The translations under genes and the position numbers were made by a program. From positions 19,907 through 83,906 of the forward strand of contig CAYZZF010000001.1 of NCBI GenBank assembly GCA_964483115.1: DNA of 64,000 nucleotides. Direction: 5' to 3'. The notes under the pieces were generated by a model that was not told where the DNA came from, did not search any database, and saw only the letters and a list, made by a program, of their open reading frames with translations. This stretch comes from an uncultured Gammaproteobacteria bacterium. GTDB lineage: Bacteria; Patescibacteriota; Microgenomatia; Levybacterales; UBA12049. Positions 15,812 through 61,200 of this stretch are shown in pieces (the stretch's first letter is position 1; each line of letters begins with the position of its first letter).

Positions 15812-15822
15812 GCCCTTTATTT

Positions 15823-43552: not shown

Positions 43553-43862
43553 AAATGAGACATTATTATTAAACAAGCTAATTCTACGAGATATGTTTTT
43601 CAAACATATCTTAAGAGTATATGGTTATATTATTAACATAGTATATTTTTTTGGTTGGTATGCTATTGTAGATAATAGGCCCTCATTGTTAGAGCCTACA
43701 AAAAATGGGTTAATTAAACTGACTGTTTTAAGAGGGAAATATAATATCGAAGTTAAATTTGTAAAAACTCCTGTCAGAAAATTTTCAGATACGGTTTCTT
43801 TATTATCATTCTTAATACTTTTAATAATTCTTGTAAAAGCTGTATATTTAAAACAGGTATGA
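43542..43862 (+). pseudogene. orphan C-terminal fragment of a family-A GT-C membrane protein
   Basis: YFFGWYAIVDNRPSLLEPTKNGLIKLTVLRGKYNIEVKFVKTPVRKF...LLIILVKAVYLKQV aligns with the last 90 aa of the CDS at 11649 (YFPGWKSTIDGNPSNIEYTNDRGVIDLSVPKGEHKIKLKFSETPLRLL...ITLKAVYIHRV). The upstream 450 aa are absent. Confidence 0.45.
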
Positions 43863-44917
43863 ATATAGCAATAGATATCTCGCCCCTTAAGAGCGGACAT
43901 TTTTTACAACACAGAGTTAGAGGAACAGGTTTTTATATAGATAATTTAAAAAGATCATTAATGAAATATTTTCCAGACAATAAATACACTTTTTTTACTC
44001 GAGGAGAAAAACTGTCCAAAGATATAGACTTAGTTCACTATCCTTATTTTGAGCCATTTTTTTTGACACTTCCTCTAGTTAAAAATCGCAAATCAGCTAT
44101 TACAATTCATGATTTGACTCCTCTTGTTTTTTCAAATGCTTTTCCAAGAGGAATAAGAGGAGAAATTAAATGGCAAATTCAAAAAAAACTTTTGGAAAGA
44201 GCAGATGTAATTATTACAGATTCAGAATGTTCAAAAAAAGACATTACTAGGTATACTGGTATACCTGACAAAAAAATTAATGTCGTTTATCTTGCAGCAG
44301 GAGAACAGTTTAAAAGAATCAAGAATCAAGAATCAAGAATCAGGGATCTGAAAACAAAATATGGATTGCCTGAAAGGTTCGTACTCTATGTAGGCGATGT
44401 TACCTGGAATAAAAATCTGCCAAGGCTGATCGAAGCGATAAAAAAGATTAATGCTACTTTGGTTATGACTGGCAGGACTTTAGCAAGTAAAGATTTTGAC
44501 CGCAATAATCCTTGGAACCAAGATCTAGTTCGGGTTCAAGAATTGGCAAAAGACGATAAAAGAATTATCCGCTTGGATTTTGTTCCGACAGGAGATTTAG
44601 TCTTTCTCTACAATATGGCCACTGTCTTTGCAATGCCCAGCTTATATGAGGGGTTTGGCTTGCCGATTCTCGAGGCTATGAGCTGCGGTTGCCCTGTTGT
44701 AACATCAAAAGAGGGTTCTTTGGAAGAAATTGCAAAAGATGCAGCTTTTTATGTAGATGCATATAATGTCGAAAGCATTGCAAAAGGGATTAAACAATTA
44801 TTTGCAAGCGACAGCCTGAGAAGAGAATTTTCAAAAAAAGGACTGGAACAGGCGAAAAAATTTTCATGGAAAAAAACAGCAGAAGATACTTTAAAAGTAT
44901 ATAAGAAAGTATTGTAA
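43859..44917 (+). CDS. GT4 (GT-B fold) glycosyltransferase
   Basis: EGFGLPILEAMSCGCPVVTSKEGSLEEI. Carries an (AAGAATC)x4 tract. Confidence 0.7.
   Translation: MNIAIDISPLKSGHFLQHRVRGTGFYIDNLKRSLMKYFPDNKYTFFTRGEKLSKDIDLVHYPYFEPFFLTLPLVKNRKSAITIHDLTPLVFSNAFPRGIRGEIKWQIQKKLLERADVIITDSECSKKDITRYTGIPDKKINVVYLAAGEQFKRIKNQESRIRDLKTKYGLPERFVLYVGDVTWNKNLPRLIEAIKKINATLVMTGRTLASKDFDRNNPWNQDLVRVQELAKDDKRIIRLDFVPTGDLVFLYNMATVFAMPSLYEGFGLPILEAMSCGCPVVTSKEGSLEEIAKDAAFYVDAYNVESIAKGIKQLFASDSLRREFSKKGLEQAKKFSWKKTAEDTLKVYKKVL
44314..44341 (+). repeat. (AAGAATC)x4 perfect, in-frame in the GT4 gene at 43859
   Basis: aagaatc x4. Encodes KNQESRIRD. Confidence 0.95.
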
Positions 44918-46224
44918 TGAATTTAATAAAAAGTCTTATTAACCATGAGTTGATAAGCGGAAGTTCTTACATATTTATTGGTTCAATGGTAGCCAATGTT
45001 TTGGCATTTCTTCTTAATCTTTTTTTGGCAAGAAACCTTTCGTATGCAGATTACTCCATATTTGCGTCCCTTTTGTCTGTAATCACATTAGCATCCATAC
45101 CGGCGGGGTCGATTAGCACTATTATTGTAAAATTTGCCACGCATTATTTTGTAAAGGAGGAAAACGAAAAACTTAAACAGCTTTATTTGACATTTTTCAA
45201 AATGATTTTGGGGATTTCAATTCTTATTATTGTTTTGTTTCTTGCCCTGTCGGTTCCAATTTTAAATTATTTGAATTTGGATAATGTCTGGTACGTTATT
45301 ATAACAGGATTTGCCATATCTTCATTTTATTTAAATGCGTTAAATACGGCATTTCTTCAAAGCCTTCTTAAATTTGGTTTTATTTCTTTTTTGAACGCAT
45401 TTGGAGGAGTAGTAAAACTTGCCTTTGGTATTTTGTTGGCTATTTTGGGTTATCGGGCTTTTAGCGGTTTATGGTCTGTTTTTTTTATGACTCTTGGGAT
45501 GTTTTTTCTTGCATTTATCCCACTTTCAAAGATTTTGAGTGCTAAATCAACAGTTAAAAAGGTGAGTTTAAACACAAGAGAGATTTTTTTATACGCTGTT
45601 CCAACTTTCACAACCGTGCTTTTTCTAACGTCGTTTACATCAACAGACGTAATTTTGGTAAAGCATTTTTTTGAGCCACGGCTCGCGGGTTTTTATGCAG
45701 GGCTTTCATTAATAGGCAAGGTAATTTTTTATTTTACATTTCCAATCCCAGTGGTGATGTTTCCACTCCTTGTTAAAAGACATTCAACAGGCAGAGAATT
45801 TGTGAACCTTTTTTATCTTGCTCTTTTTTTGGTAATGTTTCCATCGATTGCAATCACTGCATTTTATTTTATAAGACCCGAGTTTGTCATTAATTTTTTC
45901 CTAGGCGGAAGGGAATATTTGTATGTTGCAAAATACCTTGGAGTCTTTGGTTTATACCTTACCGTTTTTAGTATGGTAAACGTATGCGTCAATTTCTTTC
46001 TTTCTTTAAATAAAACAAAAATAGCCTTTTTTGTTATCCCGGCTGCAATTCTACAAATTATTTTAATATATTTTTATCACTCAAATTTTTACCAGGTTAT
46101 AGGAGTATCCCTTTTTGTTTCAAGCGTGCTTTTGGTTTTGCTTTTGATCGCCTTTTTTAGAAATTACTGGAGTTTTGGAGAAATAAAGGAAAGGATAGCA
46201 TTTTTAACGAACCCTTCAGTTTAG
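44917..46224 (+). CDS. oligosaccharide flippase (Wzx-like, MOP superfamily)
   Basis: 12-14 TM. The N-terminal region is typical of O-unit flippases. Confidence 0.55.
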   Translation: MNLIKSLINHELISGSSYIFIGSMVANVLAFLLNLFLARNLSYADYSIFASLLSVITLASIPAGSISTIIVKFATHYFVKEENEKLKQLYLTFFKMILGISILIIVLFLALSVPILNYLNLDNVWYVIITGFAISSFYLNALNTAFLQSLLKFGFISFLNAFGGVVKLAFGILLAILGYRAFSGLWSVFFMTLGMFFLAFIPLSKILSAKSTVKKVSLNTREIFLYAVPTFTTVLFLTSFTSTDVILVKHFFEPRLAGFYAGLSLIGKVIFYFTFPIPVVMFPLLVKRHSTGREFVNLFYLALFLVMFPSIAITAFYFIRPEFVINFFLGGREYLYVAKYLGVFGLYLTVFSMVNVCVNFFLSLNKTKIAFFVIPAAILQIILIYFYHSNFYQVIGVSLFVSSVLLVLLLIAFFRNYWSFGEIKERIAFLTNPSV

Positions 46225-46235
46225 TTCATGAAATA

Positions 46236-46802
46236 TTGTATAATCGATTTATGGAATTTGTCACCCTTAAAAATAAAGACAAAATAAGGCTTATCGAAAA
46301 TGTTTTAATCTATCCTCTAAAAATAAATCAAGATGAATCTGGTGGTATTTTGGTAGAAACACTTAGAACTGATTGGCCACAAATCTATGGTCCTAAGCGA
46401 GAGTTTTTTATGCAATATTACTCAATTACTCCAAGTGGCAAGGCCCGAGATGAAAATGTCTGGCATTATCACCCAAACTATCAAGAAGACAGATTTGTAG
46501 TTGCTCAAGGCGAAATTATTGTTGCAGTCGCAGACCAAAGAGAAAATTCTTTCACCAACGGATTTTTAAATCTTTTTTATATGCAGGGAAATAAAGATCC
46601 CTACATTTTGCTAGTTCCCAAAAGAACCCTTCATGGATTTATGGTTGTCTCAAAAGAGCCAGTCATCTTATTAAATTACCCAACAGGTCTTTATAATCCG
46701 AAAGAGGAAGGAAGAGTCCCTTATGAGAAGGCGAATGTAAAATTTGAAGATGGCTCGGAATTTTCATGGAACAAAGTTAGAGAGTTCTTCCTTCAAAAAT
46801 AA
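46236..46802 (+). CDS. cupin-fold NDP-sugar epimerase/isomerase (dTDP-4-dehydrorhamnose 3,5-epimerase RmlC-like)
   Basis: 188 aa. Cupin core VWHYHPNYQEDRFVVAQGEIIVAVAD. Sits immediately upstream of rmlD. Confidence 0.45.
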   Translation: MYNRFMEFVTLKNKDKIRLIENVLIYPLKINQDESGGILVETLRTDWPQIYGPKREFFMQYYSITPSGKARDENVWHYHPNYQEDRFVVAQGEIIVAVADQRENSFTNGFLNLFYMQGNKDPYILLVPKRTLHGFMVVSKEPVILLNYPTGLYNPKEEGRVPYEKANVKFEDGSEFSWNKVREFFLQK

Positions 46803-47659
46803 TGAAAATACTTTTAATTGGAAAGAATGGACAGTTGGGCAGCGAAATTGATAAGCAATCACATGAAAGAGCATATAAGACTTATGCATTTGGACATGAG
46901 GAGCTCGATATTACTGATTTTGAAAAAGTTAGATCTAAAATTGAATTATTAAAGCCGAATATAGTGATAAATGCCTCTGCTCTTAACAATGTTTCTTTAT
47001 GCGAAGAACAACTGGGAGACGCATTTCTAATAAATGCCAGTTCATTAAAGCCGATCGTACAATTCTGTTTTGAGAAGAATATAAAATTTGTGCACTATTC
47101 AACGGATTATGTTTTTGACGGACTTAAAGGTTCACCTTATAAAGAAGATGATAAGCCTAATCCTTTACAAATTTACGGTCTATCAAAACTTGTAGGAGAA
47201 TACGTTGTCTTAAATTACTCAAATACGGGAGTTATAATTAGAACTTGCGGAGTTTATGGAAAAAAAGAAGGAAGTATGTCTAAGAAAGGTAATTTTGCTT
47301 TAAAAATTTTAGAACAAGCAAAAGATAAAGATTCAATTGAAGTAGCTAGTGAGCAGATCGTTAATCCGACTTATGCAGTCGATTTGGCAAAAGCCACATT
47401 TGAGCTTTTAGTCCACAAAGATGTCAGTGGTATCTATCATTTAGCAAGTCAGGGATATTGTTCATGGGCACGGTTCGCAAGCGAAATTATAAAAATAAGA
47501 AAGCTTCGGACTAAAATAATTCCGGTTAACAGAAAAGGAATTTTAGGTTCATTAAGAAGACCATTTTTTTCCGCACTTGACAATACGAGAGCAGCAAGAT
47601 TTGGAATAAAACTTCCCCCATGGCAAGACGCAATAAAAAGATATATAGTCAGTCTTTGA
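46802..47659 (+). CDS. rmlD: dTDP-4-dehydrorhamnose reductase
   Basis: MKILLIGKNGQLG...HYSTDYVFDG.KGSPYKEDD.PNPLQIYGLSK is the RmlD substrate-binding signature. Confidence 0.8.
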   Translation: MKILLIGKNGQLGSEIDKQSHERAYKTYAFGHEELDITDFEKVRSKIELLKPNIVINASALNNVSLCEEQLGDAFLINASSLKPIVQFCFEKNIKFVHYSTDYVFDGLKGSPYKEDDKPNPLQIYGLSKLVGEYVVLNYSNTGVIIRTCGVYGKKEGSMSKKGNFALKILEQAKDKDSIEVASEQIVNPTYAVDLAKATFELLVHKDVSGIYHLASQGYCSWARFASEIIKIRKLRTKIIPVNRKGILGSLRRPFFSALDNTRAARFGIKLPPWQDAIKRYIVSL

Positions 47660-47670
47660 AAATAAAATAA

Positions 47671-48426
47671 ATGAGAAGAAAAAGACTTCTGTCTATTGTT
47701 ATCCCTGTCGGAAGACAAGAAAGAACTATTGTAAAAGACATTAAGAGTATAGATGAAACTCTTTCTCAACTTAACTGTCGCCATGAAATCATCGTAGTTG
47801 CGGATGGGTTTTTGGATAGGATATATGAGATTCTTAACAAACAGAAAAGAACAAACAAAAATCTTAAAGTACTAGGTTATGAAGAAAATCATGGTAAAGG
47901 ATATGCGGTTAAATATGGAATGCTTAAGGCAAAAGGAGATATCGTGGGTTTTATTGATGCAGGGATGGATATTGATCCTTCGGAAATATCCATCGCCTTG
48001 GATCTGATGGACTGGAATAATGCGGATATTGTCATCGGCAGCAAACTTCATCCTGAATCAAAAGTGAACTATCCATTAGTTAGGAAGGTTCTTTCCTGGG
48101 GTTACCGGACTCTAGCTCATACTTTGTTTGGATTTAAGGTTCGTGATACTCAGGTTGGGCTTAAGCTTTTTAAAAGACAAGTTGCTTACGATATTTTCTC
48201 CAGAATTCTGGTTAAGAGTTTTGCTTTTGATGTTGAAGTTTTGGCAGTTGCATATGCATTTGGATATCATAGAATTTACGAGTCGCCTATTAAATTAAAT
48301 TTTAAAAACGCCAGCACAATTACATCCTTAAATTTTTGGAGGATAATCTTTTGGATGCTTTGGGATACAGCCGCAGTTTTCTACAGATTAAAAATACTTC
48401 ATTATTATGATAGAATTGAAAAATAA
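47671..48426 (+). CDS. GT2 glycosyltransferase (DPM1-like)
   Basis: LSIVIPV, IIVVADG, a DAGMD DxD element and the NHGKGYA motif. Confidence 0.6.
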   Translation: MRRKRLLSIVIPVGRQERTIVKDIKSIDETLSQLNCRHEIIVVADGFLDRIYEILNKQKRTNKNLKVLGYEENHGKGYAVKYGMLKAKGDIVGFIDAGMDIDPSEISIALDLMDWNNADIVIGSKLHPESKVNYPLVRKVLSWGYRTLAHTLFGFKVRDTQVGLKLFKRQVAYDIFSRILVKSFAFDVEVLAVAYAFGYHRIYESPIKLNFKNASTITSLNFWRIIFWMLWDTAAVFYRLKILHYYDRIEK

Positions 48427-48429: not shown

Positions 48430-49464
48430 ATGACTAAAAATGTTCTTATTATTGGAGGGGCAGGTTTTATCGGTATAAACTGCGCATCTTATTATTTATT
48501 AAAGGGTGACAAAGTTACAATTTTTGACAACTTTTCAAGAGAAGGAAGTAGGAAAAATATAGAATGGTTGAAAGGTGAATTTACAGATAAGAAAGTTAAT
48601 ATAATAATAGGAGATATAAGACATGATTTACATAAACTTGAAAAATTAATAAAATCTGCGGATTTGATTTTTCATTTGGCAGCGCAGGTTGCCGTAACCA
48701 GTTCAGTTGAAAATCCCCGGGAGGATTTTGAAATAAACGCCTTGGGTACTTTTAATGTGTTGGAAGCTGTAAGAAAATCTGCAAGCAAAGCCGTTTTAAT
48801 TTACAGTTCCACAAACAAGGTATATGGAGGATTAGAGGACCTAAAAATTGCAGAAGGGAAAACAAGGTATAAATTTAAAAATTTGCCAAATGGAGTTTCA
48901 GAGGAAAGGAGTTTGGATTTTCATTCGCCGTATGGTTGCAGCAAGGGTACGGCAGACCAGTATGTAAGAGATTACGCAAGGATTTACGGCCTTAATACAA
49001 TAGTTTTCAGACAGTCTTGCATTTACGGTCCGCATCAATTTGGCATAGAGGATCAGGGGTGGGTTGCCTGGTTTATTATTGCTCTAACATTAGGGAAAAA
49101 AATAACAATTTACGGAAACGGAAAACAAGTAAGGGATTTATTGTACGTTGATGATTTGATTAGTGCCTACGACATAGCTGCAAAAAATATTAAAAAAACA
49201 AAAGGACAGATTTATAACATAGGCGGAGGGATAAAAAACACTATTTCTATATGGTACGACTTTAAGCCTATTTTAGAGAAATTGTTTAACAGAAAGTTAT
49301 CTCCCAATTTTTCTAAGTGGAGGCCGGGCGACCAGCCGATTTATGTCTCAGATATCAGAAAAGCCAAGAAAGATTTCGGATGGGAGCCAAAAGTGGAAGT
49401 AAAGGAAGGAATAAAAAAACTCTATGATTGGGTTTTGTCAAACAGGAATTTGTTTAATGCTTAA
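48430..49464 (+). CDS. NDP-sugar epimerase of the CDP-paratose 2-epimerase (RfbE/Tyv) family
   Basis: VTIFDNFSREGSRKNIEWL, IYSSTNKVYGG and LDFHSPYGCSKGTADQYVRDYARIYGLNTIVFRQS...DQGWVAWF closely parallel Salmonella RfbE. Confidence 0.65.
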   Translation: MTKNVLIIGGAGFIGINCASYYLLKGDKVTIFDNFSREGSRKNIEWLKGEFTDKKVNIIIGDIRHDLHKLEKLIKSADLIFHLAAQVAVTSSVENPREDFEINALGTFNVLEAVRKSASKAVLIYSSTNKVYGGLEDLKIAEGKTRYKFKNLPNGVSEERSLDFHSPYGCSKGTADQYVRDYARIYGLNTIVFRQSCIYGPHQFGIEDQGWVAWFIIALTLGKKITIYGNGKQVRDLLYVDDLISAYDIAAKNIKKTKGQIYNIGGGIKNTISIWYDFKPILEKLFNRKLSPNFSKWRPGDQPIYVSDIRKAKKDFGWEPKVEVKEGIKKLYDWVLSNRNLFNA

Positions 49465-50570
49465 TGGAAATTCTTATCTTAAACTGGAAAGATGTTAAAA
49501 ATCCCCATGCCGGCGGAGCGGAAATAATTGCCTTTGAATTTGCCAAACGTTTGGTAGAAGACGGACATAAGGTGACATTTTTTTCAAGAGCTTTTCCTAA
49601 CTGTCTAAAAGAAGAAAGGTTGGATGGCGTAAAGATAATAAGAAAAGGTAACAGATTCAGCGTTTATTTTGAAGTTTTTCTATACTACAAAAATCTTAAA
49701 AATAAACCAGATAGGGTAATAGACATGATAAATACACTTTGCTGGCAAACCCCTCTGTATGTACCTAAAAAAAATCGGATAGCTTACGTAAATCAGTTGG
49801 CAAAGGAAGTTTTTTTCTTTGAATTGTCAAGGCCTTTATCATACATAGCATATTTTTTAGAGGAATTACAGTATTTAACCTACAGGAATACAAGGTTTTT
49901 ATGCTATTCGGAAAGCACAAAAAAAGATTTGCAGGAATTTGGGATTAAAGGAAAAAATATAAGCATATTTTCTATGGGTTTGGATCATCAAAGGTATAAA
50001 AAAAACGGCAAGAAAACAAAGTACCCATTATTTATATATGTGGGAAGATTAGTAAGAATGAAGCGGGTGGATTTTTGCATAAGGGCTTTTTACGATGTTA
50101 TTAAAAAACATAAAAACGCAAAACTGGTAATTGTGGGGAACGGGCCTGACGAGAATAGGCTTTTTGACTTGACTAAAAAACTCAAACTTTCGAAAAATAT
50201 AGTTTTTGTAAATAAAAATAATTTTTTTCTCAAAAAACATAAAAATGACGTAAAAGTAAAACTTATGCAAGAAGCCTGGTGTTTACTTCTCCCCTCCGTT
50301 AAAGAAGGGTGGGGAATGGTGGTAACCGAAGCAGCAGCCTGCGGAACGCCGTCAATAGTTACTAACGTAACAGGGCTTAGGGATTCGGTTATAAAAGATA
50401 AGACAGGCCTGGTTTTATCGGAAAAACCGCCAATAAAAGAATTTTCAGATGCAATAATCAGAGTCATTGAGGATAATGGCTTAAGAGAAAGATTATCAAA
50501 AGAAGCCGTTTTATGGGCCGAAAATTTTAACTGGGACAAAAGTTACAAAGAATTTAAAAAATTAATATGA
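49464..50570 (+). CDS. GT4 (GT-B fold) glycosyltransferase
   Basis: EGWGMVVTEAAACGTPSIVTNVTGLRD. Confidence 0.7.
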   Translation: MEILILNWKDVKNPHAGGAEIIAFEFAKRLVEDGHKVTFFSRAFPNCLKEERLDGVKIIRKGNRFSVYFEVFLYYKNLKNKPDRVIDMINTLCWQTPLYVPKKNRIAYVNQLAKEVFFFELSRPLSYIAYFLEELQYLTYRNTRFLCYSESTKKDLQEFGIKGKNISIFSMGLDHQRYKKNGKKTKYPLFIYVGRLVRMKRVDFCIRAFYDVIKKHKNAKLVIVGNGPDENRLFDLTKKLKLSKNIVFVNKNNFFLKKHKNDVKVKLMQEAWCLLLPSVKEGWGMVVTEAAACGTPSIVTNVTGLRDSVIKDKTGLVLSEKPPIKEFSDAIIRVIEDNGLRERLSKEAVLWAENFNWDKSYKEFKKLI

Positions 50571-51397
50571 AGACTAATCCTTTAATATCGGTTATTGTTA
50601 GTACAAAAAACGAAGAAAAAAATATAAATAGTTGTTTAAAAAGCATAAAAAACCAAACATATAAAAACTTAGAAATAATTGTTGTTGATAATAACTCGCA
50701 GGATAAAACAGTTAAAATTGCTAAAAAATACACAAAATTGGTTTTTAATAAAGGCCCGGAAAGAAGCGCGCAGAGAAACTTCGGGGTATTAAAAGCAAAA
50801 GGGAAATATTTCTTATTTATTGACAGCGATATGGAACTATCAAAAGAAGTTGTAGAGGACTGTATTCAACTAGTTGAAAATTATAAAACAGTAGGAGGAG
50901 TGATTATTCCGGAAGAGTCAGTCGGCGAAGGATTTTGGACAAAATGTAAAGCCTTAGAAAGGAGTTTTTATATTGGAATTGACTGGATAGAGGCTCCCAG
51001 ATTTTTTTCTAAAAAGATATTTAATGAATTTAAAGGATACGACGAAAAGCAGACCGGGACTGAAGATTATGACTTGCCGCAGAGGATAAAACAAAGAATG
51101 GGAGAGAAATCAATTTCAAGAGTAAATAGTTTTATATATCACCATGAAGGGAGATTAAAACTTTGGTATACGCTGAAAAAAAAATATTACTACGCAAAAA
51201 CCGCTAATGTATACGCAAAAAAGAAATCAAATAAGGCATATTTTAATAAACAGGCAAATATCTTAGAAAGATACAAATTATTTTTTTCAAGACCTAAAAA
51301 ATTATTTAAAAATCCATTAGTTGGATTGGGTATGCTTTTTATGAAAACCACAGAGTTTGCCGCGGGAGGGTTAGGTTATTTTCTTTCGACTTTTTAA
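50567..51397 (+). CDS. GT2 glycosyltransferase
   Basis: ISVIVSTKNEE...IIVVDNNSQDKT and a DSD element. Confidence 0.65.
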   Translation: MKTNPLISVIVSTKNEEKNINSCLKSIKNQTYKNLEIIVVDNNSQDKTVKIAKKYTKLVFNKGPERSAQRNFGVLKAKGKYFLFIDSDMELSKEVVEDCIQLVENYKTVGGVIIPEESVGEGFWTKCKALERSFYIGIDWIEAPRFFSKKIFNEFKGYDEKQTGTEDYDLPQRIKQRMGEKSISRVNSFIYHHEGRLKLWYTLKKKYYYAKTANVYAKKKSNKAYFNKQANILERYKLFFSRPKKLFKNPLVGLGMLFMKTTEFAAGGLGYFLSTF

Positions 51398-51436: not shown

Positions 51437-52618
51437 ATGATTAAGCTTATCAAATCAACATTTTATAAAGAAAAAGAAACAAAGAAAAAGCTTGTTGAAT
51501 TTATAAACAGTGCCAGCCAGCTAAGTATTGGCAAGGAGTGCAAAAAATTTGAAGAAAATTTCGCCAAATGGCAGAAAAGAAAATATTGCGTTTTTGTAAA
51601 CAGCGGAAGTTCCGCAAATCTTGCTGTAGTTCAATCTCTTTTAAACCTTGGGAAAATTAAAAAGGGTGATTATGTAGGTTTTTCTGCGGTTACATGGTCA
51701 ACAAACGTTATGCCTCTTATTCAGCTTGGGCTCAATCCTGTCCCGATAGATGTAGAACTTGATACTCTAAACGTATCAAGCAAAAAGCTTCTTGAAACAC
51801 TTAAAAAATATCCGATAAAAATGCTGTTTCTCACAAATTTATTAGGGTTTTGCGATGACATCGATAAAATTGTTAAGGTTTGTAAAAAGAACAAAATTAT
51901 TTTAGTAGAAGACAATTGTGAAGCATTAGGAACAGTTTATAAAGGTAAAAAACTTGGAAATTTCGGACTGGCTTCCACTTTTTCGTTTTATGTCGGTCAC
52001 CATCTGTCAACTGTCGAAGGAGGGGCGGTATGTACGGACAGCTCCGAGTTTGAAACCATGCTTCAGATGGTAAGAGCTCATGGTTGGGATAGAAACCTAA
52101 CAAAGCAAAAACAACTTAAAATAAGAATAAAACATAATGTCAATTCAACTTTTTACTCAAGGTACACCTTTTACGATTTGGGTTACAACTTAAGGACAAC
52201 GGAGATAAACGGTTTTATTGGCAATATTCAGCTTAAATACACAGATGAAATTATTGAAAAAAGACGGGATAATTTTTTAAGATTAGCGTCCCCAATTTAT
52301 AAAATAAAAGATAAGTATTATCCTCTTAAATACGATCATATCGAGCTTCTTTCTAATTTTGCAGTGCCAGTTATCTGTAAGTCAAAAAAAATAAGGGATA
52401 AGTTGGTTGAGAAATGCAAAGACAAAGTAGAGATCAGGCCGATTGTCGGGGGAGATATGGTTGTCCAGCCGTTTTTTAAAAAATACATGCCCGATGTTGT
52501 AAAAAATTTCAACAATTCAAATGCCAGACTTGTTCACGAGCAGGGACTTTACTTTGGAAACAATCCAGAATTGACAAAAAAAGAAATTGACGAAATTGTA
52601 GAAATATTTACAAAGTAA
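51437..52618 (+). CDS. PLP-dependent NDP-4-keto-6-deoxyhexose 3-dehydratase of the DegT family (ColD/E1-like, His in place of the Schiff-base Lys)
   Basis: SGSSANL and LVEDNCEALGT are DegT-family elements. FSFYVGHHLSTVEGGAV has His where aminotransferases carry Lys, as in RfbH/ColD. The CxC...C Fe-S motif of E1 is absent, and 393 aa fits ColD. Confidence 0.55.
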   Translation: MIKLIKSTFYKEKETKKKLVEFINSASQLSIGKECKKFEENFAKWQKRKYCVFVNSGSSANLAVVQSLLNLGKIKKGDYVGFSAVTWSTNVMPLIQLGLNPVPIDVELDTLNVSSKKLLETLKKYPIKMLFLTNLLGFCDDIDKIVKVCKKNKIILVEDNCEALGTVYKGKKLGNFGLASTFSFYVGHHLSTVEGGAVCTDSSEFETMLQMVRAHGWDRNLTKQKQLKIRIKHNVNSTFYSRYTFYDLGYNLRTTEINGFIGNIQLKYTDEIIEKRRDNFLRLASPIYKIKDKYYPLKYDHIELLSNFAVPVICKSKKIRDKLVEKCKDKVEIRPIVGGDMVVQPFFKKYMPDVVKNFNNSNARLVHEQGLYFGNNPELTKKEIDEIVEIFTK

Positions 52619-52619
52619 T

Positions 52620-53597
52620 ATGAATAATTTTTGGAAAGATAAAAAAGTTTTGATAACAGGCGGAGCAGGTTTTATAGGAAGCCATTTAGTTGAAAAATTA
52701 GTTAAAAGAAAAGCCAAAGTTTCGGTTTTGGATAACCTTGTAAGTGGTTCATTGGATAATCTTAAAAGTGTTGAAAAACAGATTAAATTTATTAAGGGCG
52801 ACTGCGCAAATTTAGAAGTTGCGCAGAAAACCTGCAGAAGGCAGGATGTGGTAATGAATTTGGCTGCCAGAGTAGGAGGAATTGAGTATAACAGAACGCA
52901 TCATGCAACTATGTTTAAGGACAATCTTCCGATAGAAGCTACAATGATAGAAGCAGCAAGGCTTGAGAGGGTGGAGAGGTTTTTGGTGGTTTCTTCGGCG
53001 TGCGTTTATCCGCATGATTGCTCAATACCAACTCCTGAATCGGAAGGATTTTTAGACGAACCCGAGCCGACAAACGGAGGCTACGGCTGGGCAAAAAGAA
53101 TGGGAGAAAAATTAGGAGAATACTATGCGAAGGAGTTTGGAATGAAGGTTGGGATAGTCAGGCCTTATAATTGCTACGGGCCCCGAGATCATTTTGAACC
53201 TGATAAGTCGCACGTAATTCCTGCTCTTATCAAAAGAGTTTTTGACGGGGAAAATCCGGTTAAAGTTTGGGGAAGCGGTAGTCAGACAAGAGCCTTTTTA
53301 TATGTAGAAGATTTGGCAGAAGGTATGATACTGGCAATAGAAAAGTATACAAAACCAGACCCGATTAATTTAGGAACAGACGAGGAAATTTCCATAAAAG
53401 ATTTAATAAAAAAAATAATTGAAATAAGCAAGAAAAGTGTAAAGGTTGAGTTTGATACAACAAAACCGGACGGGAGCCCAAGGAGAAACAGTAACAATAA
53501 AAAGGCAGTGGAAAAAATCGGTTTTAAGCCGACCATAAAACTTAATGAAGGTCTTAGAAAAACAATAAATTGGTATAAAGAATACGCCAACTTATGA
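52620..53597 (+). CDS. GDP-4-keto-6-deoxyhexose 3,5-epimerase/4-reductase (GDP-L-fucose synthase Fcl / GDP-L-colitose synthase ColC-like)
   Basis: LAARVGGI, VSSACVYP, EPTNGGYGWAKRMGE (YxxxK), VRPYNCYGPRDHFEPDKSHVIPALI, VWGSGSQTRAFLYVEDLA and TKPDGSPRR all parallel E. coli Fcl. Confidence 0.65.
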   Translation: MNNFWKDKKVLITGGAGFIGSHLVEKLVKRKAKVSVLDNLVSGSLDNLKSVEKQIKFIKGDCANLEVAQKTCRRQDVVMNLAARVGGIEYNRTHHATMFKDNLPIEATMIEAARLERVERFLVVSSACVYPHDCSIPTPESEGFLDEPEPTNGGYGWAKRMGEKLGEYYAKEFGMKVGIVRPYNCYGPRDHFEPDKSHVIPALIKRVFDGENPVKVWGSGSQTRAFLYVEDLAEGMILAIEKYTKPDPINLGTDEEISIKDLIKKIIEISKKSVKVEFDTTKPDGSPRRNSNNKKAVEKIGFKPTIKLNEGLRKTINWYKEYANL

Positions 53598-54739
53598 GCC
53601 TCAAAAATTCCACCTTTGTTATTGTAACGCACGTTTACGCAACTGGACCGGCCTTCCGGCTTGAGGAATATCTTCAAAAAAAAATAAAAAATCTGATATT
53701 CATCGGACATGCTTTTTCTTACACAAAAGACACGCGTTCTTTTTTAAAAATTTATAAAAACGGAAAACTTATCAAGGAAACTAAATTTAGAAAGTGGAAA
53801 GGTCCGGAATTATCTTTTTATTTTAAAGATATTTTTTTGACAATTTGGTGGGTATTAAAATTTGCTCCAAAAGTCGATTACTTTGTAGGGGTGGACAACC
53901 TGAATGCTTTTAGCGGACATACTTTAAAATTGATAGGTAAAGTAAGGCACATAATTTTTTATACTATAGATTATATACCCAACCGTTTTGAAAATAAAAC
54001 GTTAAACTATATTTATCATTTTCTTGACAGACTAGCGGTAAGAAAAAGCGATAAAGTCTGGAACCTTTCTGCGATAATGGTAAAAGAAAGGGAAAAAAGA
54101 GGCGTTGAAGTTAATTGTCGGGATAAACAAATAGTTGTCCCCATTGGTACGGATATTCCAAGCAAAATATTAAATTTCAAGAATATAGACAGATACAAAA
54201 TAGTTTTTATGGGACATCTTAGAGAGGGACAGGGAGTTGAGCTTTTGCTGGAGGCGATGCCTGATGTTATAAAAAAAATTCCAAAGGCTCATTTTTTTAT
54301 CATTGGCGGTGGACCATTAGGGGATAAGTACAAAAAAATTGCGGATAGGAAAAGACTTACAAGGCATGTCAAGTTTTCAGGTTTTGTTAAGGAGTATTCA
54401 GACGTAGAGAAACTTTTAAAAGATTCTGCAGTTGCTGTTGCACCGTATGTTGACGATGATAGAACTTATACTAGATACACAGACCCTGGAAAGCCTAAAG
54501 ATTATTTGGCAAGTGGTTTACCCGTTGTTATAACAAAAGTTCCCCAGGTTGCATACGAGATAGAAAAAAATAAATGCGGAATTGCAATAAGCGATAATAA
54601 AAAAGAGCTAACGGAAGCGCTTGTAAAACTATTAACGGATGATAAAATGCTTTCCGAGTTTAGAAAGAACGCCTTAAAAATGGCCAAAAAATATACTTGG
54701 GACAAAATTTTTGCTAAAGCATTAAAAGAAACACTGTGA
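53594..54739 (+). CDS. GT4 (GT-B fold) glycosyltransferase
   Basis: GHLREGQGVELLLEAM...DYLASGLPVVIT. Confidence 0.6.
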   Translation: MSLKNSTFVIVTHVYATGPAFRLEEYLQKKIKNLIFIGHAFSYTKDTRSFLKIYKNGKLIKETKFRKWKGPELSFYFKDIFLTIWWVLKFAPKVDYFVGVDNLNAFSGHTLKLIGKVRHIIFYTIDYIPNRFENKTLNYIYHFLDRLAVRKSDKVWNLSAIMVKEREKRGVEVNCRDKQIVVPIGTDIPSKILNFKNIDRYKIVFMGHLREGQGVELLLEAMPDVIKKIPKAHFFIIGGGPLGDKYKKIADRKRLTRHVKFSGFVKEYSDVEKLLKDSAVAVAPYVDDDRTYTRYTDPGKPKDYLASGLPVVITKVPQVAYEIEKNKCGIAISDNKKELTEALVKLLTDDKMLSEFRKNALKMAKKYTWDKIFAKALKETL

Positions 54740-55761
54740 AAAAATTAGTTTCCGTAATTATTGTTAATTGGAATGGGAAGAGGTTCTTAAAGGAATGTTT
54801 ATCATCCTTATTTGCACAAGACTACAAAAATATTGAAGTTATTTTTGTAGATAATGCGTCTACGGATGATTCTGTTGACTATGTTAAGAAAAATTTTCCA
54901 AAAACAAAGATAGTTTCAAACAAGAAAAATCTAGGTTTTGCAGAAGGTAATAATATCGGGTATAAAAATGCAACAGGCGATTATATTTTATTTTTAAATA
55001 ACGATACCAAGGTTACAAAAAGTTTTTTAACGGAATTGGTAAAAGTTTTGGAAAGTGATAAAAAAATAGGAGGAGTGCAAAGTAAAATTTTGTTAATGGA
55101 CGACCCGACCCGGCTTGATTCAGTAGGTGCATTTTTAACAAACACCGGCTTTTTGTACCACTACGGTATAGCAAAAAAAGATTCTCCGAAATACAATAAA
55201 CAGATTGACATATATTCCGCAAAAGGGGCTTGCATGATTTTTAAAAGAGAAGTGTTGGAAAAAATAAAAGTAGACGGGGAAATTTTTGACAGCCGATATT
55301 TTGTATATTTTGAAGAAACAGATATGTGTCACCGAATTTGGCTAGCGGGATACAAAATTGTTTTTGTCCCTAAATCAGTTGTTTATCATAAAATGGGCGG
55401 CACAAGCGCAAAACTTGATAATGCGTTTGTTCAATATCACTCATTTAAAAACAGAATAAATTCTTATATCAAGAATTTAGGAACATTGGAACTATTAAAA
55501 ATTCTACCGCTTCATATTTTAATGTGCGAAGCGTTTGCGCTAATACTTCTTATAAAATTAAAATTTTCTTTATTTCTCTCAATCCAGAAAGCAATAGTCT
55601 GGAATCTAGCAGTTCTAAATGCAACCTTAATTAAAAGAAAGCAAATACAAAAATATATAAGAGAGGTAAACGACATGCGTTTGCTACATAAAGTTTTAAG
55701 AAACGTTAGGTTTACTTATTACTACCATTTATTCGGCGGGCTTAAGAATTACAATGAATAG
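54736..55761 (+). CDS. GT2 glycosyltransferase
   Basis: VSVIIVNWNGKRFLKECLSSL...FVDNASTDDS...LNNDT. Confidence 0.7.
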   Translation: MKKLVSVIIVNWNGKRFLKECLSSLFAQDYKNIEVIFVDNASTDDSVDYVKKNFPKTKIVSNKKNLGFAEGNNIGYKNATGDYILFLNNDTKVTKSFLTELVKVLESDKKIGGVQSKILLMDDPTRLDSVGAFLTNTGFLYHYGIAKKDSPKYNKQIDIYSAKGACMIFKREVLEKIKVDGEIFDSRYFVYFEETDMCHRIWLAGYKIVFVPKSVVYHKMGGTSAKLDNAFVQYHSFKNRINSYIKNLGTLELLKILPLHILMCEAFALILLIKLKFSLFLSIQKAIVWNLAVLNATLIKRKQIQKYIREVNDMRLLHKVLRNVRFTYYYHLFGGLKNYNE

Positions 55762-56998
55762 AAAAAATAAAATTGCCTTTATTACACCAATTTATCTGCC
55801 TGCAAATTTAACGGGCTCTTCAGGAATAATTAGGGAAATTTCGGAATATCTAGCAAAAATAGGTTTTGATGTTTCTATTATTACCTCTAATGCTTTAACT
55901 GGTAGATATTGGTATGATCCAATCTTTGGTAAAAAAATTGATAAAAAATTTGAGAAGATCAATGGTGTAAAAGTGTTTCGACTTTCCTGCAATCAATTTA
56001 TTTCCAGTTCTTGTTTTATTCTGGTTAGGTATCTGAATTTTTTATTGTCTCAAAAGCTTTTAGATAAACTAGAAATTATATCAAATGGCCCATTTCTAAA
56101 TGGGTTAGGAAGCATCTTAGCAAAAGAGAAATTTGATATTATCCACTCTTCACCATTTCCTTTGAATATTAACAGGCAAGTAGTTAGCGAAATAAAAAAA
56201 CTTGATAATAAACCAAAACTAATTTTTACCCCCTTTTTGCATACGGAATTGAAAGAATTTAAAAATCCAGAACTTGCTAAGATTATTTCTAATGCGGATA
56301 TAGTACATGTAGTTACTAATGCAGAAAAGTTGTATGTAGAAAAAAAATTAAATCTGAAAAATAAAAAAATTGTGGTAATAGCATTATTTATTAATTTCAA
56401 AAAGCTTAGTCCTATTGAAAAATTGAACGAAGATATTAAAAGATTCAAAGATAAATATAAACTCAACGGTAAGAAAATAGTTCTATTTGCAGGCATTAAG
56501 GGATACATGAAGGGCGCAATTACTCTTCTTAATGTAATAAATGAGATATATAGAAAAAATTCCTCTTACGTCTTAATAACTATTGGTAATGATACTCCTG
56601 AGTGGGTGAAAGAAAAAAAGAAGATTAATCCTAAATTTCTTTTGGACTTTGGATATGTTGATGATAAAACTAAAGAAATCATTTTTTCAGCCTGCGATGT
56701 ATTTTGTATGCCCTCGATTAGTGAATCCTTTGGGTTAACCTATCTTGAAGCGTGGCATAAGAAAAAAATGGTTATTGGAGCTTATGTGCCTGCTGTTAGA
56801 GAAATTATAACCAAAGCAAAAGGTGGTTTGCTTGTAAAATTTAATGACTCTAAAGATCTCCAGCTAAAAATTTATGAATCCTTTAAGAAAAATAACAATT
56901 CTTCAAGAATGGGCATGAATGGCTATAAATATTTGCTTAAAAACTACGAAAACTTAAAAATCTTTGATAAATATAGTAAGTTATTTTCTATAAGCTAA
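55754..56998 (+). CDS. GT4 (GT-B fold) glycosyltransferase
   Basis: SESFGLTYLEAWHKKKMVIGAYVPAVREII. Confidence 0.6.
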   Translation: MNRKNKIAFITPIYLPANLTGSSGIIREISEYLAKIGFDVSIITSNALTGRYWYDPIFGKKIDKKFEKINGVKVFRLSCNQFISSSCFILVRYLNFLLSQKLLDKLEIISNGPFLNGLGSILAKEKFDIIHSSPFPLNINRQVVSEIKKLDNKPKLIFTPFLHTELKEFKNPELAKIISNADIVHVVTNAEKLYVEKKLNLKNKKIVVIALFINFKKLSPIEKLNEDIKRFKDKYKLNGKKIVLFAGIKGYMKGAITLLNVINEIYRKNSSYVLITIGNDTPEWVKEKKKINPKFLLDFGYVDDKTKEIIFSACDVFCMPSISESFGLTYLEAWHKKKMVIGAYVPAVREIITKAKGGLLVKFNDSKDLQLKIYESFKKNNNSSRMGMNGYKYLLKNYENLKIFDKYSKLFSIS

Positions 56999-57002
56999 TA
57001 TC

Positions 57003-58214
57003 ATGAAAGTTGCTTTGTTATTTTATTCATTAACAATAAAAGGGGGGGGTTCAAGGCAGTTTTTACAATTAGCCAACTACCTACAAGATAAAGGCAACGA
57101 AGTAACTGTTTTTGCAATAGAATACAATTCCAGAGAATGTTTTCCGGAGCTTTGTAAAAAATTAAATATAATATCTCTTAATAAGGATAAGGAATTTTTT
57201 AACCACTCACAAGATTTTTCCATAAAGGAACAAATAAGAAATTTCTTTCTCGTATTTAAACTGGGATATTTAGTTTCCAAATATGATTTTCGTCTTTTAA
57301 ATCCTCATGAGTGGCCGGCTAGTTGGGCAGCGGTGGTAGCGAAGTTATTAAAATTAGGTAAACCTAAAATAATTTGGATGTGTAATGATTTATGGCATGT
57401 ATATAATCCCTACATAAAAAATTATAGCCTTAACTTCAAACTTAGAAGGATGCTTGATGTTTTTGTTACTAAGTATTTTGTTAATGACATAGTGGTTCTA
57501 GACAACAGAATTAAAAAATTGGTAAAGATTTTTTATAAAAAAAACGCAAAAGTGGTAAGAAGTGGAATTGATATCAAAAATTTTTTGTCTTTTAAGCATT
57601 CTGACTATAAAAACAAAACGATTAGAAAAAAATTAGGCATAGGAAGTCACGAATGTTTACTTATGTCTTTTGGTATTTTTTATCCTCAGAGAAGGTTTGA
57701 GGATGCAATTTTATCGGTCAAAAGTGTTAAAGATGACTTAAAAGTAAAAAAAGATTTTAAATATGCGATAATAGGGTCCAACAAGAGAGATCCTGATTAT
57801 TTTAATAAGATTAAATTAATGACTAATGAATATAAACTTGATAATTCTGTAAAATTTATTACAAGTTCGGTTAGTGATAAAGAATTGTTGTATTTTTACG
57901 ATTCATGTGACGTATTTATTTTTCCTAATGATAAGCAAACTTGGGGGTTGGCTGTAATAGAGGCAATGGCATTGGGAAAACCCTGTGTGGTATCTACAGG
58001 GTCGGGTGTTTCAGAGGTGCTTACCAATGAAGAAAATGCTCTTCTTGTGAAACCTAGAAACCCATCTCAACTGGCTTTAGCTTTAAAAAAACTCATCGAA
58101 AATACTGAAGATAGAAAAAAAATTGGAATTAACGGTAAAAAGCTTGTTTTATCCAATTTCTCTTGGGAAAAATATTCTTCAGGCATGTTAAATATCATGA
58201 GTAAATATGTCTAA
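57003..58214 (+). CDS. GT4 (GT-B fold) glycosyltransferase
   Basis: QTWGLAVIEAMALGKPCVVSTGSGVSEVL. Carries a G8 homopolymer at codons 13-15. Confidence 0.65.
   Translation: MKVALLFYSLTIKGGGSRQFLQLANYLQDKGNEVTVFAIEYNSRECFPELCKKLNIISLNKDKEFFNHSQDFSIKEQIRNFFLVFKLGYLVSKYDFRLLNPHEWPASWAAVVAKLLKLGKPKIIWMCNDLWHVYNPYIKNYSLNFKLRRMLDVFVTKYFVNDIVVLDNRIKKLVKIFYKKNAKVVRSGIDIKNFLSFKHSDYKNKTIRKKLGIGSHECLLMSFGIFYPQRRFEDAILSVKSVKDDLKVKKDFKYAIIGSNKRDPDYFNKIKLMTNEYKLDNSVKFITSSVSDKELLYFYDSCDVFIFPNDKQTWGLAVIEAMALGKPCVVSTGSGVSEVLTNEENALLVKPRNPSQLALALKKLIENTEDRKKIGINGKKLVLSNFSWEKYSSGMLNIMSKYV
57042..57049 (+). repeat. G8 homopolymer in the first 15 codons of the GT4 gene at 57003
   Basis: aaa ggg ggg ggt encodes KGGG. 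It is the only long G/C homopolymer I saw in this AT-rich window. Confidence 0.9.
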
Positions 58215-61200
58215 TAAGATAAAAAGCGCAATAAATTTGTTAATATTGTTTGCAATTTCAATACCATTTTTATGGTTTAAGAACGGTTATTTTATAGCTT
58301 GGGCCGATGGAACTTTACCACTTAGGCCCCTTAAGTATCTGGAAACACTAATATATATGTGGTCTGGTATTCCAAATAGTGGCAACCCGAATGTTGTTTC
58401 TCCTACCGCATTTATTTTATTTGGACCACTTTACTTGGTAAACTTTGTCGTTTTTCACTTTAACGTGGTTTCTTTACAAAAGATTTTCTTCTCTTTATGG
58501 TTATTTTTACCAATTCTAGCAACTCTTCTTTTGTATAACTATTTGTTTAAAGCAGATACAAAAAAATATCTATACATTTTTTTTGCAATTTTATTCTACT
58601 CATTCAACCTGTATCGCGCGGGAATGTTTGGCGATGTTGCTAATATGTCAATTTATGCGGCAGAGCCATTAGTCCTCCTTTTAGTAATTAAAGCAGTAAA
58701 TGAAAACAAAAACTTTTTAAAATATTCGATACTGATTGCCTTATCTTCTCTTATTGCCTCCGGAGCAGGCGCTAATCCGCCTATGTACGCAGTGTTTTTA
58801 CTACCGCCCCTTTTATATATTTTTCTAATATTAATTGAAAGTTTTATTAAAAAAAATTTCTTATCTAAATTTTACTCAATAGCAAAATTTATTGTTCTTT
58901 CCACTTTTATGTTTTTACTTGTAAATGCTTATTGGATTTTGCCATTTCTCTATCAATATCTGGGAGTCGCCGCGTCAAGCGGTTTAAAAGGAGCTAATCT
59001 TCTAGATTGGAGTTTAGGGACAAGTTCTGTAACAAGCCTTGCCAATATCATAAGAATGCAGGGGGCGTGGGATTGGTATTCGGGTGTCGGAAGCGATCCG
59101 TATGTCCCGTATGCAGCAAATTACCAGAATAACCCCGTTTTATTGTTTTTAGGTTTTTTGCTTCCTATTCTCGCCTTTGTGGCTGTTTATTTTGTCCGAA
59201 ACAGATATACAATATTTTTTACGCTTATTACTCTAATTGGAATTATTTTTAGCCAAGGATCGCATTCTCCTTTTGGGCCAATTTACAATTTTTTAACGGC
59301 TCGCCTTCCACTTTTTTGGATGTTTAGAAGCAGCTGGTATAAATTTAGTTTTTTGGTTGCGCTTGGCTATAGTTTTCTTGGAGCAGTGTCGGTTGCATAT
59401 ATTTTTGACATTTTGATTAAGCAAAAAAGAAAATTTCTAAATTTAAAATTAGCATACGCATTTCTTGTTTTTGTTATTGCGGGAACCCTAATTTATGCAT
59501 ATCCGTTTATAGACGGAGAAAAATTTCCAAAACCCGGCGTCCATAAAATTTTACCGGCAAGTCACATAAAAGTCCCGGATTATGTTTATAAATCTGCAGA
59601 TTGGATAAACAATCAAAAGGAAACTTTTAGAACTTTTGTATTTCCTAATATGCCTTCCTTTATCTATACTTGGGATTTTAACGGCCTGACCGATGTTTCT
59701 TTTTATCTTTATGATAAAGGAGAATTATTTACGTCAAATCAGGTGGGGACAACCGGATTGGGGAATTCTGTCGGCGATATTAATTCTCAAATATATAATG
59801 GAATTTATTTTAATGACTATGCTAATGCGCTAAGACTGGCAGGAATTTTGGGCGCAAAGTATTTGGTCGAGCGAAAAGACATAAGATATAATTTTTATGG
59901 AGGATACGATTCTCCCGCATTTGTTAACAAACAATTGCAAAATGCGCAAGGTTTAAAGCAGACAAATACCTTTGGAGAATGGAATTTCTACAAACTTTCG
60001 AATAATTACTTTTTACCCCTCTTTTATGTGCCAGAAAATTTAACTTATTCGGAATCTAGTGTATCTTCGATCGGAGATATATTAACTTTAAGTGATTCTC
60101 TAAAACAGCAAATTCTATTCTCCGATTTTAAAAATAACAGAGAAAATGTCGAAATTAGACCGTTAATAAATAATTATGTGCTAAAAGCAAATTGCATATT
60201 GTGTAAAAGCAATGGCCTAAAAGAAATAGAAGACAAAATTCAAATGCCTTTTGTGCAACTTTTGCCCGATTCTCCGTTTTACTTCTTGGTAAAAAACAAA
60301 GAGCAGAAACAACTCGCTACCTATAAGGGATTGCCTGATAAGGAGATTAGTCTTAATTTAGATTTATCTAATAGAAGGCTGGTAGAATTATCAAAAGTTT
60401 TGACAAGAGAGCAAAAAGATAATTCTGATACATTAATTAAAAATTTAATACAAAAATATAAAAATCATATTCAAGAAGCATTAGGTAAAATAAATAATCT
60501 TTCCGGAATTGAAAAAAATGAGAAACTAATAGAAATACTTGCCTATCTGAAAGTCCAAGACAAATTTTTAGAATTGTTGCCGGACACAGATAAAATTCCG
60601 CAATCTTTACTGCAGGACTTGTCTGTTTTTATTAGCGACACATTGAATAACTTAAGGTCTGAGATTTGGATGACGACAGAGAATACGGATGAAAAATTAT
60701 TTTTCAATATTAATGAAGACGGGAATTATTCTTTTAATATAAAAAATTCTCCGACCCCACCCTCAAAAATATTAATAGATGGAACAGAATACATAAAGGT
60801 AAAAGACATTCAGCTTACAAAAGGAACGCATAAGCTGGAATTAATCTATCCGCAGCCAGATAATCTTCTTGTCGCAGATAACGCTTCATCAAGCGGAGAG
60901 TTTGTTTTAAACTATGGAGAAAAGAAAACATTCGCAGTTAAGAGTTTCGACTATAAAAATACTTACTTAATAAAATTTGAATATAAAGTTTCAGAAGGAA
61001 AGGCGCCTAATATTATACTAGCTCAAGATAACGATCAAAAAGACTGGGACGGAAATTACAGCAGAACTTTGAATTCGGTTCTAAACGGTGACGGAAAATG
61101 GCATACATTTGAGTATGCTTTTACGCCAAACTTGGGAGCAAAAAACGCTTTTTTGCAATTTTATTCGTCCGGTTTTGATTATTCGCAAAGTAAATTTTCA

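Follow-up and report, generated by a model that had tools for sequence, protein, structure and literature searches.

A ColD-type 3,6-dideoxyhexose module in an unusual cassette within a Patescibacteria glycosylation island

Results

Genes of the module

We analyzed a stretch of 64,000 nucleotides (hereafter, the window) from contig CAYZZF010000001.1 of assembly GCA_964483115.1, positions 19,907 to 83,906 of the forward strand, and focused on two adjacent genes predicted to encode a ColD-type sugar 3-dehydratase and an extended short-chain dehydrogenase/reductase (SDR), here called FclW. A homolog of the epimerase TyvE is encoded in the same operon, 2 kb upstream of the dehydratase gene; it had been overlooked in an earlier reading of the same DNA made from the sequence alone (the sequence-only reading). 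The three genes were as follows.

48430-49464, + strand: homolog of CDP-tyvelose/paratose 2-epimerase (TyvE, SDR1E family), 344 aa, with an STNKVYG motif
51437-52618, + strand: predicted nucleoside diphosphate (NDP)-4-keto-6-deoxyhexose 3-dehydratase of the ColD type, dependent on pyridoxamine/pyridoxal phosphate (PMP/PLP), 393 aa, with His188 in place of the Schiff-base Lys
52620-53597, + strand: FclW, an extended SDR of the Fcl/ColC/GME superfamily, predicted C5(3,5)-epimerase/C4-reductase, 325 aa

The start of FclW lies 2 nt past the stop codon of the dehydratase gene, and its end overlaps the following glycosyltransferase family 4 (GT4) gene by 4 nt.

The dehydratase resembles ColD

The translated 51437-52618 frame contains TFSFYVGHHLSTVEGG. 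The sequence-only reading had assigned it a DegT-family fold with His where aminotransferases carry the PLP-binding Lys, and both parts were borne out. Pfam DegT_DnrJ_EryC1 (PF01041) matched at full length with 212 bits. The top match in the Protein Data Bank (PDB) was ColD/WbdK of E. coli O55 (2gms; 204 bits, E 2.8e-59, residues 17-390), compared with 151 bits for E1 (3bcx) and at most 100 bits for ordinary sugar aminotransferases. BLASTP against ColD of E. coli O55:H7 CB9615 gave 36% identity (E 6e-64). In both HMMER and BLASTP alignments, the first His of GHH occupied the column of ColD His188; this column holds Asn in 3b8x (H188N) and Lys in 2r0t (H188K), and the equivalent residue of E1 was H220. 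Three paralogous DegT aminotransferases from related loci carried Lys there, whereas alignment with ColD, E1/RfbH and aminotransferases revealed no Lys at the PLP position of the window dehydratase. The SFYVGHH segment was at least 97% conserved across 120 homolog clusters, with the His invariant.

The iron-sulfur (Fe-S) cluster segment of E1, DCYCAPGCDNTC, aligned opposite a Cys-free LTK--QKQL. The only Cys shared with E1 was that of EDNC161E, which is also present in ColD, and the other three of the four Fe-S Cys were absent. The lack of the E1 motif and the ColD-like length, both claimed earlier, were thus confirmed (393 aa, against 388 aa in ColD and 437 aa in E1). The score against NCBIfam RfbH (NF011936) was 224 bits, below the cut-off of 423. 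Neither the window nor any related locus contained an E3-like ferredoxin/FNR motif, and no window protein had a Pfam match to an E3-type domain.

Pairwise alignment with ColD indicated that Asp159, Ser183, Trp88, Arg219, Asn248 and Arg331 are all kept. We take these residues to be the cofactor and NDP-phosphate contacts in the ColD structures, roles reportedly described by Cook and Holden in 2007/2008. The EDNCE, SGSxAN and GYNxR motifs and both Arg residues (WxRN, ExRP) of ColD (E. coli O55, Yersinia; 2GMS, 3B8X) were also present, and the two proteins share the fold, the similar length, the alignment of His188 on His188, the lack of an Fe-S motif and an Fcl-family gene in the next position. 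The differences from the ColD system were the identity of only 36%, Gly in place of ColD Ser187, the lack of gmd, manC and manB nearby, the SDR subfamily of the partner, the TyvE homolog in the operon, and a host from the candidate phyla radiation (CPR). The GDP-6-deoxy-4-keto-heptose C3-dehydratase of C. jejuni HS:5 was grouped with ColD as the closest known system. With E1/RfbH/AscC (3BCX), the window dehydratase shares the fold, the His at the Lys position and the predicted C3 deoxygenation, and loci related to the window have a CDP-type context (RfbF-like, RfbG-like and TyvE proteins) as E1 does; the window dehydratase differs in lacking C-x-C-x7-C, in being about 45 aa shorter and in having no detected E3 gene. 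These features support a predicted Fe-S-free 3-dehydratase of the ColD type, with His for Lys and no E3 partner. As far as its sequence can tell, the enzyme has every ColD feature except linkage to gmd.

In RefSeq, the characterised ColD of E. coli O55:H7 CB9615 (L132:5701-7787; L numbers denote loci gathered for comparison) is named only 'DegT/DnrJ/EryC1/StrS family aminotransferase', and ColC of the same strain only 'GDP-L-fucose synthase family protein'. NCBIfam apparently has no model specific to ColD or ColC. E1-type 3-dehydrases were also observed in CPR (L019:15823-17076, - strand, 417 aa; L041:1671-2960, + strand, 429 aa). These proteins have His at the Lys position together with a C-x-C-x7-C motif, DCWCDTGKDNTC. 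In L019, 3-dehydratase genes of both types, E1 and ColD, occur together, and no E3-like gene was detected near the E1-type genes of L019 and L041.

FclW is related to Fcl and ColC but differs in its cofactor segment

The second gene of the pair had been described as closely paralleling GDP-fucose synthase (Fcl) and ColC. The motifs behind that claim, CYGPRDHF...SHVIPAL and TKPDGSPRR, were present. SSAC127, Y155xxxK159, H198 and D38 were conserved at 97% or more, and the FclW residues aligned with Ser107, Cys109, Tyr136, Lys140 and His179 of E. coli Fcl, which gives the complete epimerase/reductase set. FclW thus shares with Fcl and ColC the catalytic Ser, Cys, Tyr-x3-Lys and His, the SHVIPAL and KPDG(S/T)PR(R/K) motifs and, with ColC, a position right after a 3-dehydratase.

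The closeness of the parallel did not hold. The best NCBIfam family was GDP-L-fucose synthase (NF047922), at 221.9 bits and below its cut-off of 500. Among PDB entries, Fcl 7ll6 covered only residues 73-323 of FclW (183 bits), while GDP-mannose 3,5-epimerase (GME) matched over the full length (156 bits). Compared with the E. coli proteins, FclW reached 154 bits for Fcl and 116 bits, at 29% identity, for ColC. The score between E. coli Fcl and ColC was 227 bits, so that these two are nearer to one another than to FclW. The canonical partner SDRs of loci with gmd reached 320-366 bits to E. coli Fcl.

The cofactor-binding segment also differed. FclW has GGAG in place of GHRG, a 16-residue insertion between beta2 and beta3 that is absent from Fcl and ColC, and an invariant Asp38 (VLDNL); the short NADPH-type Rossmann segment of Fcl (GHRG...LRTRDE) was lacking, and the N-terminal half aligned better with GME and UXS. 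In sequence terms, GGAG with the Asp38 insertion is the signature of NAD-binding extended SDRs (GalE, UXS, GME), and the invariance of Asp38 suggests NAD(H) rather than NADPH. Because the cofactor segment differs, the Fcl cut-off is missed and ColC and Fcl are mutually closer, FclW is best placed as a separate subfamily of the Fcl/ColC/GME group with no close parallel to ColC. Within this subfamily, identities were 72-83% over 120 clusters. The earlier description therefore stands for superfamily, motifs and catalytic residues, but not for a close relation to ColC.

A canonical GDP-L-colitose pathway, in which FclW would be a divergent ColC and the TyvE homolog and RmlC/RmlD would belong to unrelated sugar branches, would account for the retained SHVIPAL, KPDGSPRR and S-x-C motifs and for the order of a ColD gene followed by an Fcl-like gene, as in gmd-colD-fcl cassettes. 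We regard it as improbable, given the separate conservation of FclW, its altered cofactor segment, the mutual closeness of ColC and Fcl, and genomic associations that differ significantly from those of Fcl/ColC-like partners (see below).

A canonical Fcl/ColC-like partner from a gmd-colD-fcl cassette (L032:11168-12106) has GSAVIYP and is without the catalytic Cys of Fcl, ColC and FclW.

A TyvE homolog in the operon

The 48430-49464 product matched the TyvE structures 9rl0 (357 bits, E 8.6e-106) and 1orr (327 bits, E 1.1e-96), and the next family followed at 136 bits. It is full length with STNKVYG and YGCSK, which combines SDR1E similarity with the Thr/Tyr/Lys triad. NCBIfam placed it as a dTDP-glucose 4,6-dehydratase at 187 bits, below the cut-off; we dropped a 4,6-dehydratase assignment in view of the TyvE matches. 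With TyvE of S. Typhi (1ORR) and T. atlanticus (TaTyvE, 9RL0), the protein shares STNKVYG, YGCSK and the D-Q-G-W lid segment. It differs in the lid, where Tyr203 is replaced by Glu (Glu-Asp-Gln-Gly-Trp against Tyr-Asp-Gln-Gly-Trp in TaTyvE), and in that E1, E3, RfbS, RfbF and RfbG are absent from the window. Orthologs scoring about 500 bits were present in three FclW-type loci (L012, L017 and L068).

Two cassette types share one dehydratase

The comparison set comprised 39 loci of GTDB species genomes and 80 metagenomic loci, to which exact-protein look-up added several more. Neighboring genes were classed by phmmer against E. coli K-12, E. coli O55 and locus-derived references, and statistics were computed on loci dereplicated at 90% identity with at least 10 kb of flank. 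ColD-like genes fell into two cassette types according to the partner SDR. In the first, the partner is a canonical-length Fcl/ColC-like SDR (the 320-366-bit class described above) or belongs to an intermediate class, and its usual direct neighbor is gmd (400-577 bits against E. coli Gmd). In the second, which is that of the window, the partner is FclW. Cassettes of the second type frequently also hold a 311-aa SDR immediately upstream of the pair, a TyvE-related SDR of 350 aa downstream, a TyvE ortholog, an RfbF-like glucose-1-phosphate cytidylyltransferase (TIGR02623; 268 bits against a cut-off of 300) and an RfbG-like CDP-glucose 4,6-dehydratase (223 against 278, with an SSDKAYG signature). 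Counts in FclW loci and in Fcl/ColC-type loci were as follows; the p-values are indicative only, because the loci are related by descent.

gmd: 0/14 FclW loci, 12/21 Fcl/ColC-type loci (Fisher p 6e-4)
RfbF or RfbG: 6/14 FclW loci, 1/21 Fcl/ColC-type loci (Fisher p 0.01)
311-aa SDR: 5/14 FclW loci, 0/21 Fcl/ColC-type loci (Fisher p 0.006)

The ColD-like and FclW genes were adjacent in all 14 dereplicated loci selected by ColD, and a ColD-like gene lay immediately upstream of FclW in 4/4 loci selected by FclW. The gene order of the window, GalE-GT4-Wzx-GT2-GT4-GT2-ColD-FclW-GT4-GT2-GT4 (GT2, glycosyltransferase family 2), recurred in L129, and the part up to FclW also in L127. L012 and L017 carried TyvE-SDR311-ColD-FclW-SDR350...RfbF-RfbG.

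The strict pairing bears on whether the first gene acts as a dehydratase at all. Its product could instead serve in vivo as an aminotransferase or epimerase or be a paralog without activity, or FclW could be a GME-like redox-neutral epimerase that is adjacent through operon packing. The VLD38NL Rossmann motif of FclW resembles that of the tightly NAD+-binding GME, GalE and UXS, and SpnQ can transaminate without a reductase (PMC8987622). Adjacency in 18/18 independent FclW loci speaks against this explanation, as does the absence of transaminase activity in wild-type ColD and E1 (PMC8987622). So does the His at the Lys position with a ColD-like active site, a combination that has marked a 3-dehydratase in all cases characterised. 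We consider it very improbable.

The dehydratases themselves did not follow the division of the cassettes. Orthologs 50-72% identical to the window dehydratase stood in gmd-ColD-Fcl cassettes (L023, L073, L089, L091, L097, L100, L103 and L031-L037), and the hosts of L031-L037 include Chitinophaga, Saccharimonadales and a Woesearchaeota metagenome-assembled genome. ColD-like proteins linked to gmd and those linked to FclW and RfbF/G differed at only three conservative positions (F/Y185, I/V235 and A/S241). Because of this, the nucleotide carrier is not readable from the ColD-like sequence. In a neighbor-joining tree, the cassette types were intermixed; the close relatives of the window dehydratase included L001, with the gmd-associated partner type, and L073, which adjoins gmd, fell inside the FclW-rich part. 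RfbF/RfbG also occurred in some gmd loci (L075 and L097), and those of L005 and L008 may feed another pathway because they lie next to an RmlC. In sequence, the window and gmd-linked dehydratases are thus one and the same enzyme, while the context of the window dehydratase is a gmd-free, CDP-flavored cassette.

The 311-aa and 350-aa SDRs flank the ColD-like gene directly upstream and downstream in L003 (9009-9947 and 12197-13249), with equivalents in L004, L005, L006, L007, L011, L012, L017, L027 and L059. The 350-aa protein has an STNKVYG motif, and its best solved relative is TyvE (136 bits). The 311-aa protein was considered as a hidden 4,6-dehydratase and rejected, as its variable STS(H/Q)VYG motif is without the acid/base pair; its sequence makes a reductase or epimerase more likely. 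TylC3-like sugar C-methyltransferase genes (Methyltransf_13/14) were found at or near the ColD/Fcl pair in L134 (11021-12262) and L001 (6205-7443), which hints at branched-chain deoxysugars in some relatives.

Genomic surroundings of the module

The window has a G+C content of about 32%, and its nearest homologs were from Candidatus Levybacteria, Microgenomates and other Patescibacteria. Loci titled 'uncultured Gammaproteobacteria bacterium' (L007, L009-L012, L017, L019, L020 and others) shared synteny and 65-74% identity with Levybacteria/Microgenomates loci; such titles in these GTDB records seem to be placeholders or taxonomic errors. L129 is labeled Limnocylindrales despite its window-type synteny.

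The module lies within a co-directional glycosylation island with at least 12 GT-C-type membrane proteins (PMT_2, PTPS_related, YfhO, GT87 and AftD-like), about 20 GT2/GT4 genes and two Wzx-like flippases. This island is an unusually large part of a small CPR genome. Its main features were as follows.

About 5800-62131: the whole island, about 56 kb
15787-17277: Wzx-like flippase (Pfam)
42563-43552, + strand: GalE (NCBIfam, 402 bits, above the cut-off of 262)
43859-44917, + strand: GT4 (Pfam)
44917-46224, + strand: second Wzx-like flippase (Pfam)
46236-46802, + strand: RmlC-like cupin (weak; Pfam, 39 bits)
46802-47659, + strand: RmlD (NCBIfam, 251 bits, above the cut-off of 224)
47671-48426, + strand: GT2 (Pfam)
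49464-50570, + strand: GT4 between the TyvE homolog and the dehydratase (Pfam Glycos_transf_1, 137 bits)
50567-51397, + strand: GT2 between the TyvE homolog and the dehydratase (Pfam Glycos_transf_2, 105 bits)
53594-58214, + strand: four overlapping glycosyltransferase genes, GT4, GT2, GT4 and GT4 (Pfam), candidate users of the dideoxy sugar
58207-61764, + strand: AftD-like GT-C membrane glycosyltransferase, 1185 aa (Pfam GT-C_AftD, 47 bits; CBM_4_9), at the end of the cluster

An RmlC-like cupin recurred 5' of ColD-like genes in many related loci. Positions 62132-64000 (about 1.9 kb) were devoid of open reading frames of at least 60 aa and held only two short tandem repeats of 7 nt, at 62631-62662 and at 63336-63367. 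No Rfam family or tRNA was matched in the window.

The sequence-only reading had found neither a GDP-mannose 4,6-dehydratase nor ManC, leaving the pathway incomplete in the window. Searches of the 64 kb with phmmer on all open reading frames and with tblastn agreed, detecting none of Gmd, ManC, ManB, RfbF, RmlA, GalF, RmlB and RfbG. In short Logan contigs extending beyond the window ends, the upstream side held housekeeping genes (Lon, MarR, efflux), and the downstream side added nothing new. The early enzymes for both the RmlC/RmlD branch and the dideoxy branch are therefore encoded outside the window.

Discussion

The locus is a real 3,6-dideoxyhexose module that builds on known chemistry in an unusual cassette. 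We propose that the translationally coupled pair converts an NDP-4-keto-6-deoxyhexose into an activated 3,6-dideoxy-L-hexose for the flanking glycosyltransferases, and we assign this reading a probability of about one half. The precursor would be supplied by genes outside the window. In the first step, the enzyme, whose type is assigned by homology, would form a PMP ketimine at C4 of the sugar; His188 would take the C4' proton, the 3-OH would leave, and the resulting enamine would be hydrolysed to the 4-keto-3,6-dideoxy sugar and ammonia. L-glutamate would regenerate PMP, so that neither an Fe-S cluster nor an E3 reductase would be needed. This step is modeled on the mechanism of ColD and of its C. 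jejuni homolog (PMC8987622, PMC10440746). In the second step, FclW would epimerise C5 and reduce C4 through the Cys127/His198 acid-base pair and the Ser/Tyr/Lys triad, probably with NAD(H) as cofactor. The TyvE homolog would most likely invert C2. Its substrate would be either the product or the NDP-hexose precursor, for instance an NDP-glucose, much as TaTyvE acts on CDP-glucose (PMC7851689, PMC13098431). The flanking glycosyltransferases would then use the 3,6-dideoxy sugar.

As substrate we favor GDP-4-keto-6-deoxy-D-mannose, because the dehydratase is indistinguishable from its gmd-linked orthologs; this substrate, with a colitose-like product, has roughly even odds. In that case, the module would yield colitose or one of its C2/C4 isomers through a non-canonical partner enzyme, and GDP-colitose itself has at best an even chance and perhaps a somewhat poorer one. 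The sequence-only reading had gone further and named a colitose-type branch. A 3,6-dideoxyhexose branch is upheld, and the orthologs in gmd-colD-fcl cassettes, with no specificity-determining differences between contexts, are in favor of colitose. Colitose itself is not established, in view of the FclW subfamily, the TyvE homolog and the gmd-free cassettes.

Several observations weigh against our proposal. Neither gmd, manC, a 4,6-dehydratase nor a nucleotidyltransferase was found in the 64 kb or in about 7 kb upstream of the window. The FclW-type cassettes likewise carried no gmd, which was also missing from four further loci selected by FclW (0/4), and 6/14 of them had RfbF-like or RfbG-like genes. 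FclW does not reach the Fcl equivalog cut-off, and its role as a net reductase is an assumption, because its Rossmann fold is typical of tightly bound NAD+. Finally, characterised TyvE enzymes physiologically act on CDP sugars (PMC13098431).

Alternatively, the module may act on CDP sugars. Here, the ColD-type enzyme would replace E1/E3 on CDP-4-keto-6-deoxy-D-glucose or, in a variant, use a CDP-manno sugar supplied by the TyvE-family 2-epimerase, and the products would be tyvelose-, paratose- or ascarylose-type sugars, or CDP-colitose formed through FclW and TyvE. The presence of the TyvE homolog within the same operon and the contrasting distribution of gmd and RfbF-like/RfbG-like genes between the cassette types are consistent with this possibility. 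The cassette of L012 and L017 maps one-to-one on the Salmonella rfbF/G/H+I/S/E logic with no E1 present, and TaTyvE converts CDP-Glc into CDP-Man (PMC7851689, PMC13098431). However, the ColD-like proteins have no context-specific residues, the nearest kin of the window dehydratase pair with the gmd-linked SDR type (L001) or adjoin gmd (L073), and GDP sugars are the substrates of all characterised Fe-S-free His enzymes. RfbF and RfbG also occur in gmd loci or next to RmlC, the window itself has neither, and CPR possess genuine E1-type genes (L019 and L041). We therefore hold action on CDP sugars to be possible but rather unlikely, and retain the GDP-sugar substrate as the favored one within our proposal.

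Rare and highly antigenic, the 3,6-dideoxyhexoses of cell surfaces have been described almost exclusively from the O-antigens of enterobacteria. Their chemistry is already known; new here are an Fcl/GME-hybrid SDR subfamily, TyvE-family epimerases, the absence of gmd and a CPR host. The ColD-type module was 65-89% identical across many uncultured Patescibacteria and lay inside very large glycosylation islands, and public records name its genes only generically ('DegT aminotransferase', 'NAD-dependent epimerase'). A literature search retrieved nothing relevant on ColD-like enzymes in CPR or acting on CDP sugars. CDP-dideoxy sugars are hard to make enzymatically, and an attempt with E1/E3 failed (PMC7851689).

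With one dehydratase in two cassettes, direct experiments can address which nucleotides ColD-type enzymes tolerate and what FclW does. A tentative and doubtful further idea is that CPR make CDP-linked 3,6-dideoxyhexoses of the tyvelose, ascarylose or CDP-colitose type through a glutamate-recycling ColD-type enzyme, free of Fe-S cluster and reductase, together with FclW and TyvE-family epimerases. If true, sugar 3-dehydratases would gain a fourth class of substrates and these antigenic sugars a route that needs no Fe-S cluster, with FclW as a previously undescribed NAD-type Fcl/GME hybrid epimerase-reductase, and CDP-dideoxy sugars would be made in an oxygen-insensitive, Fe-S-free manner.

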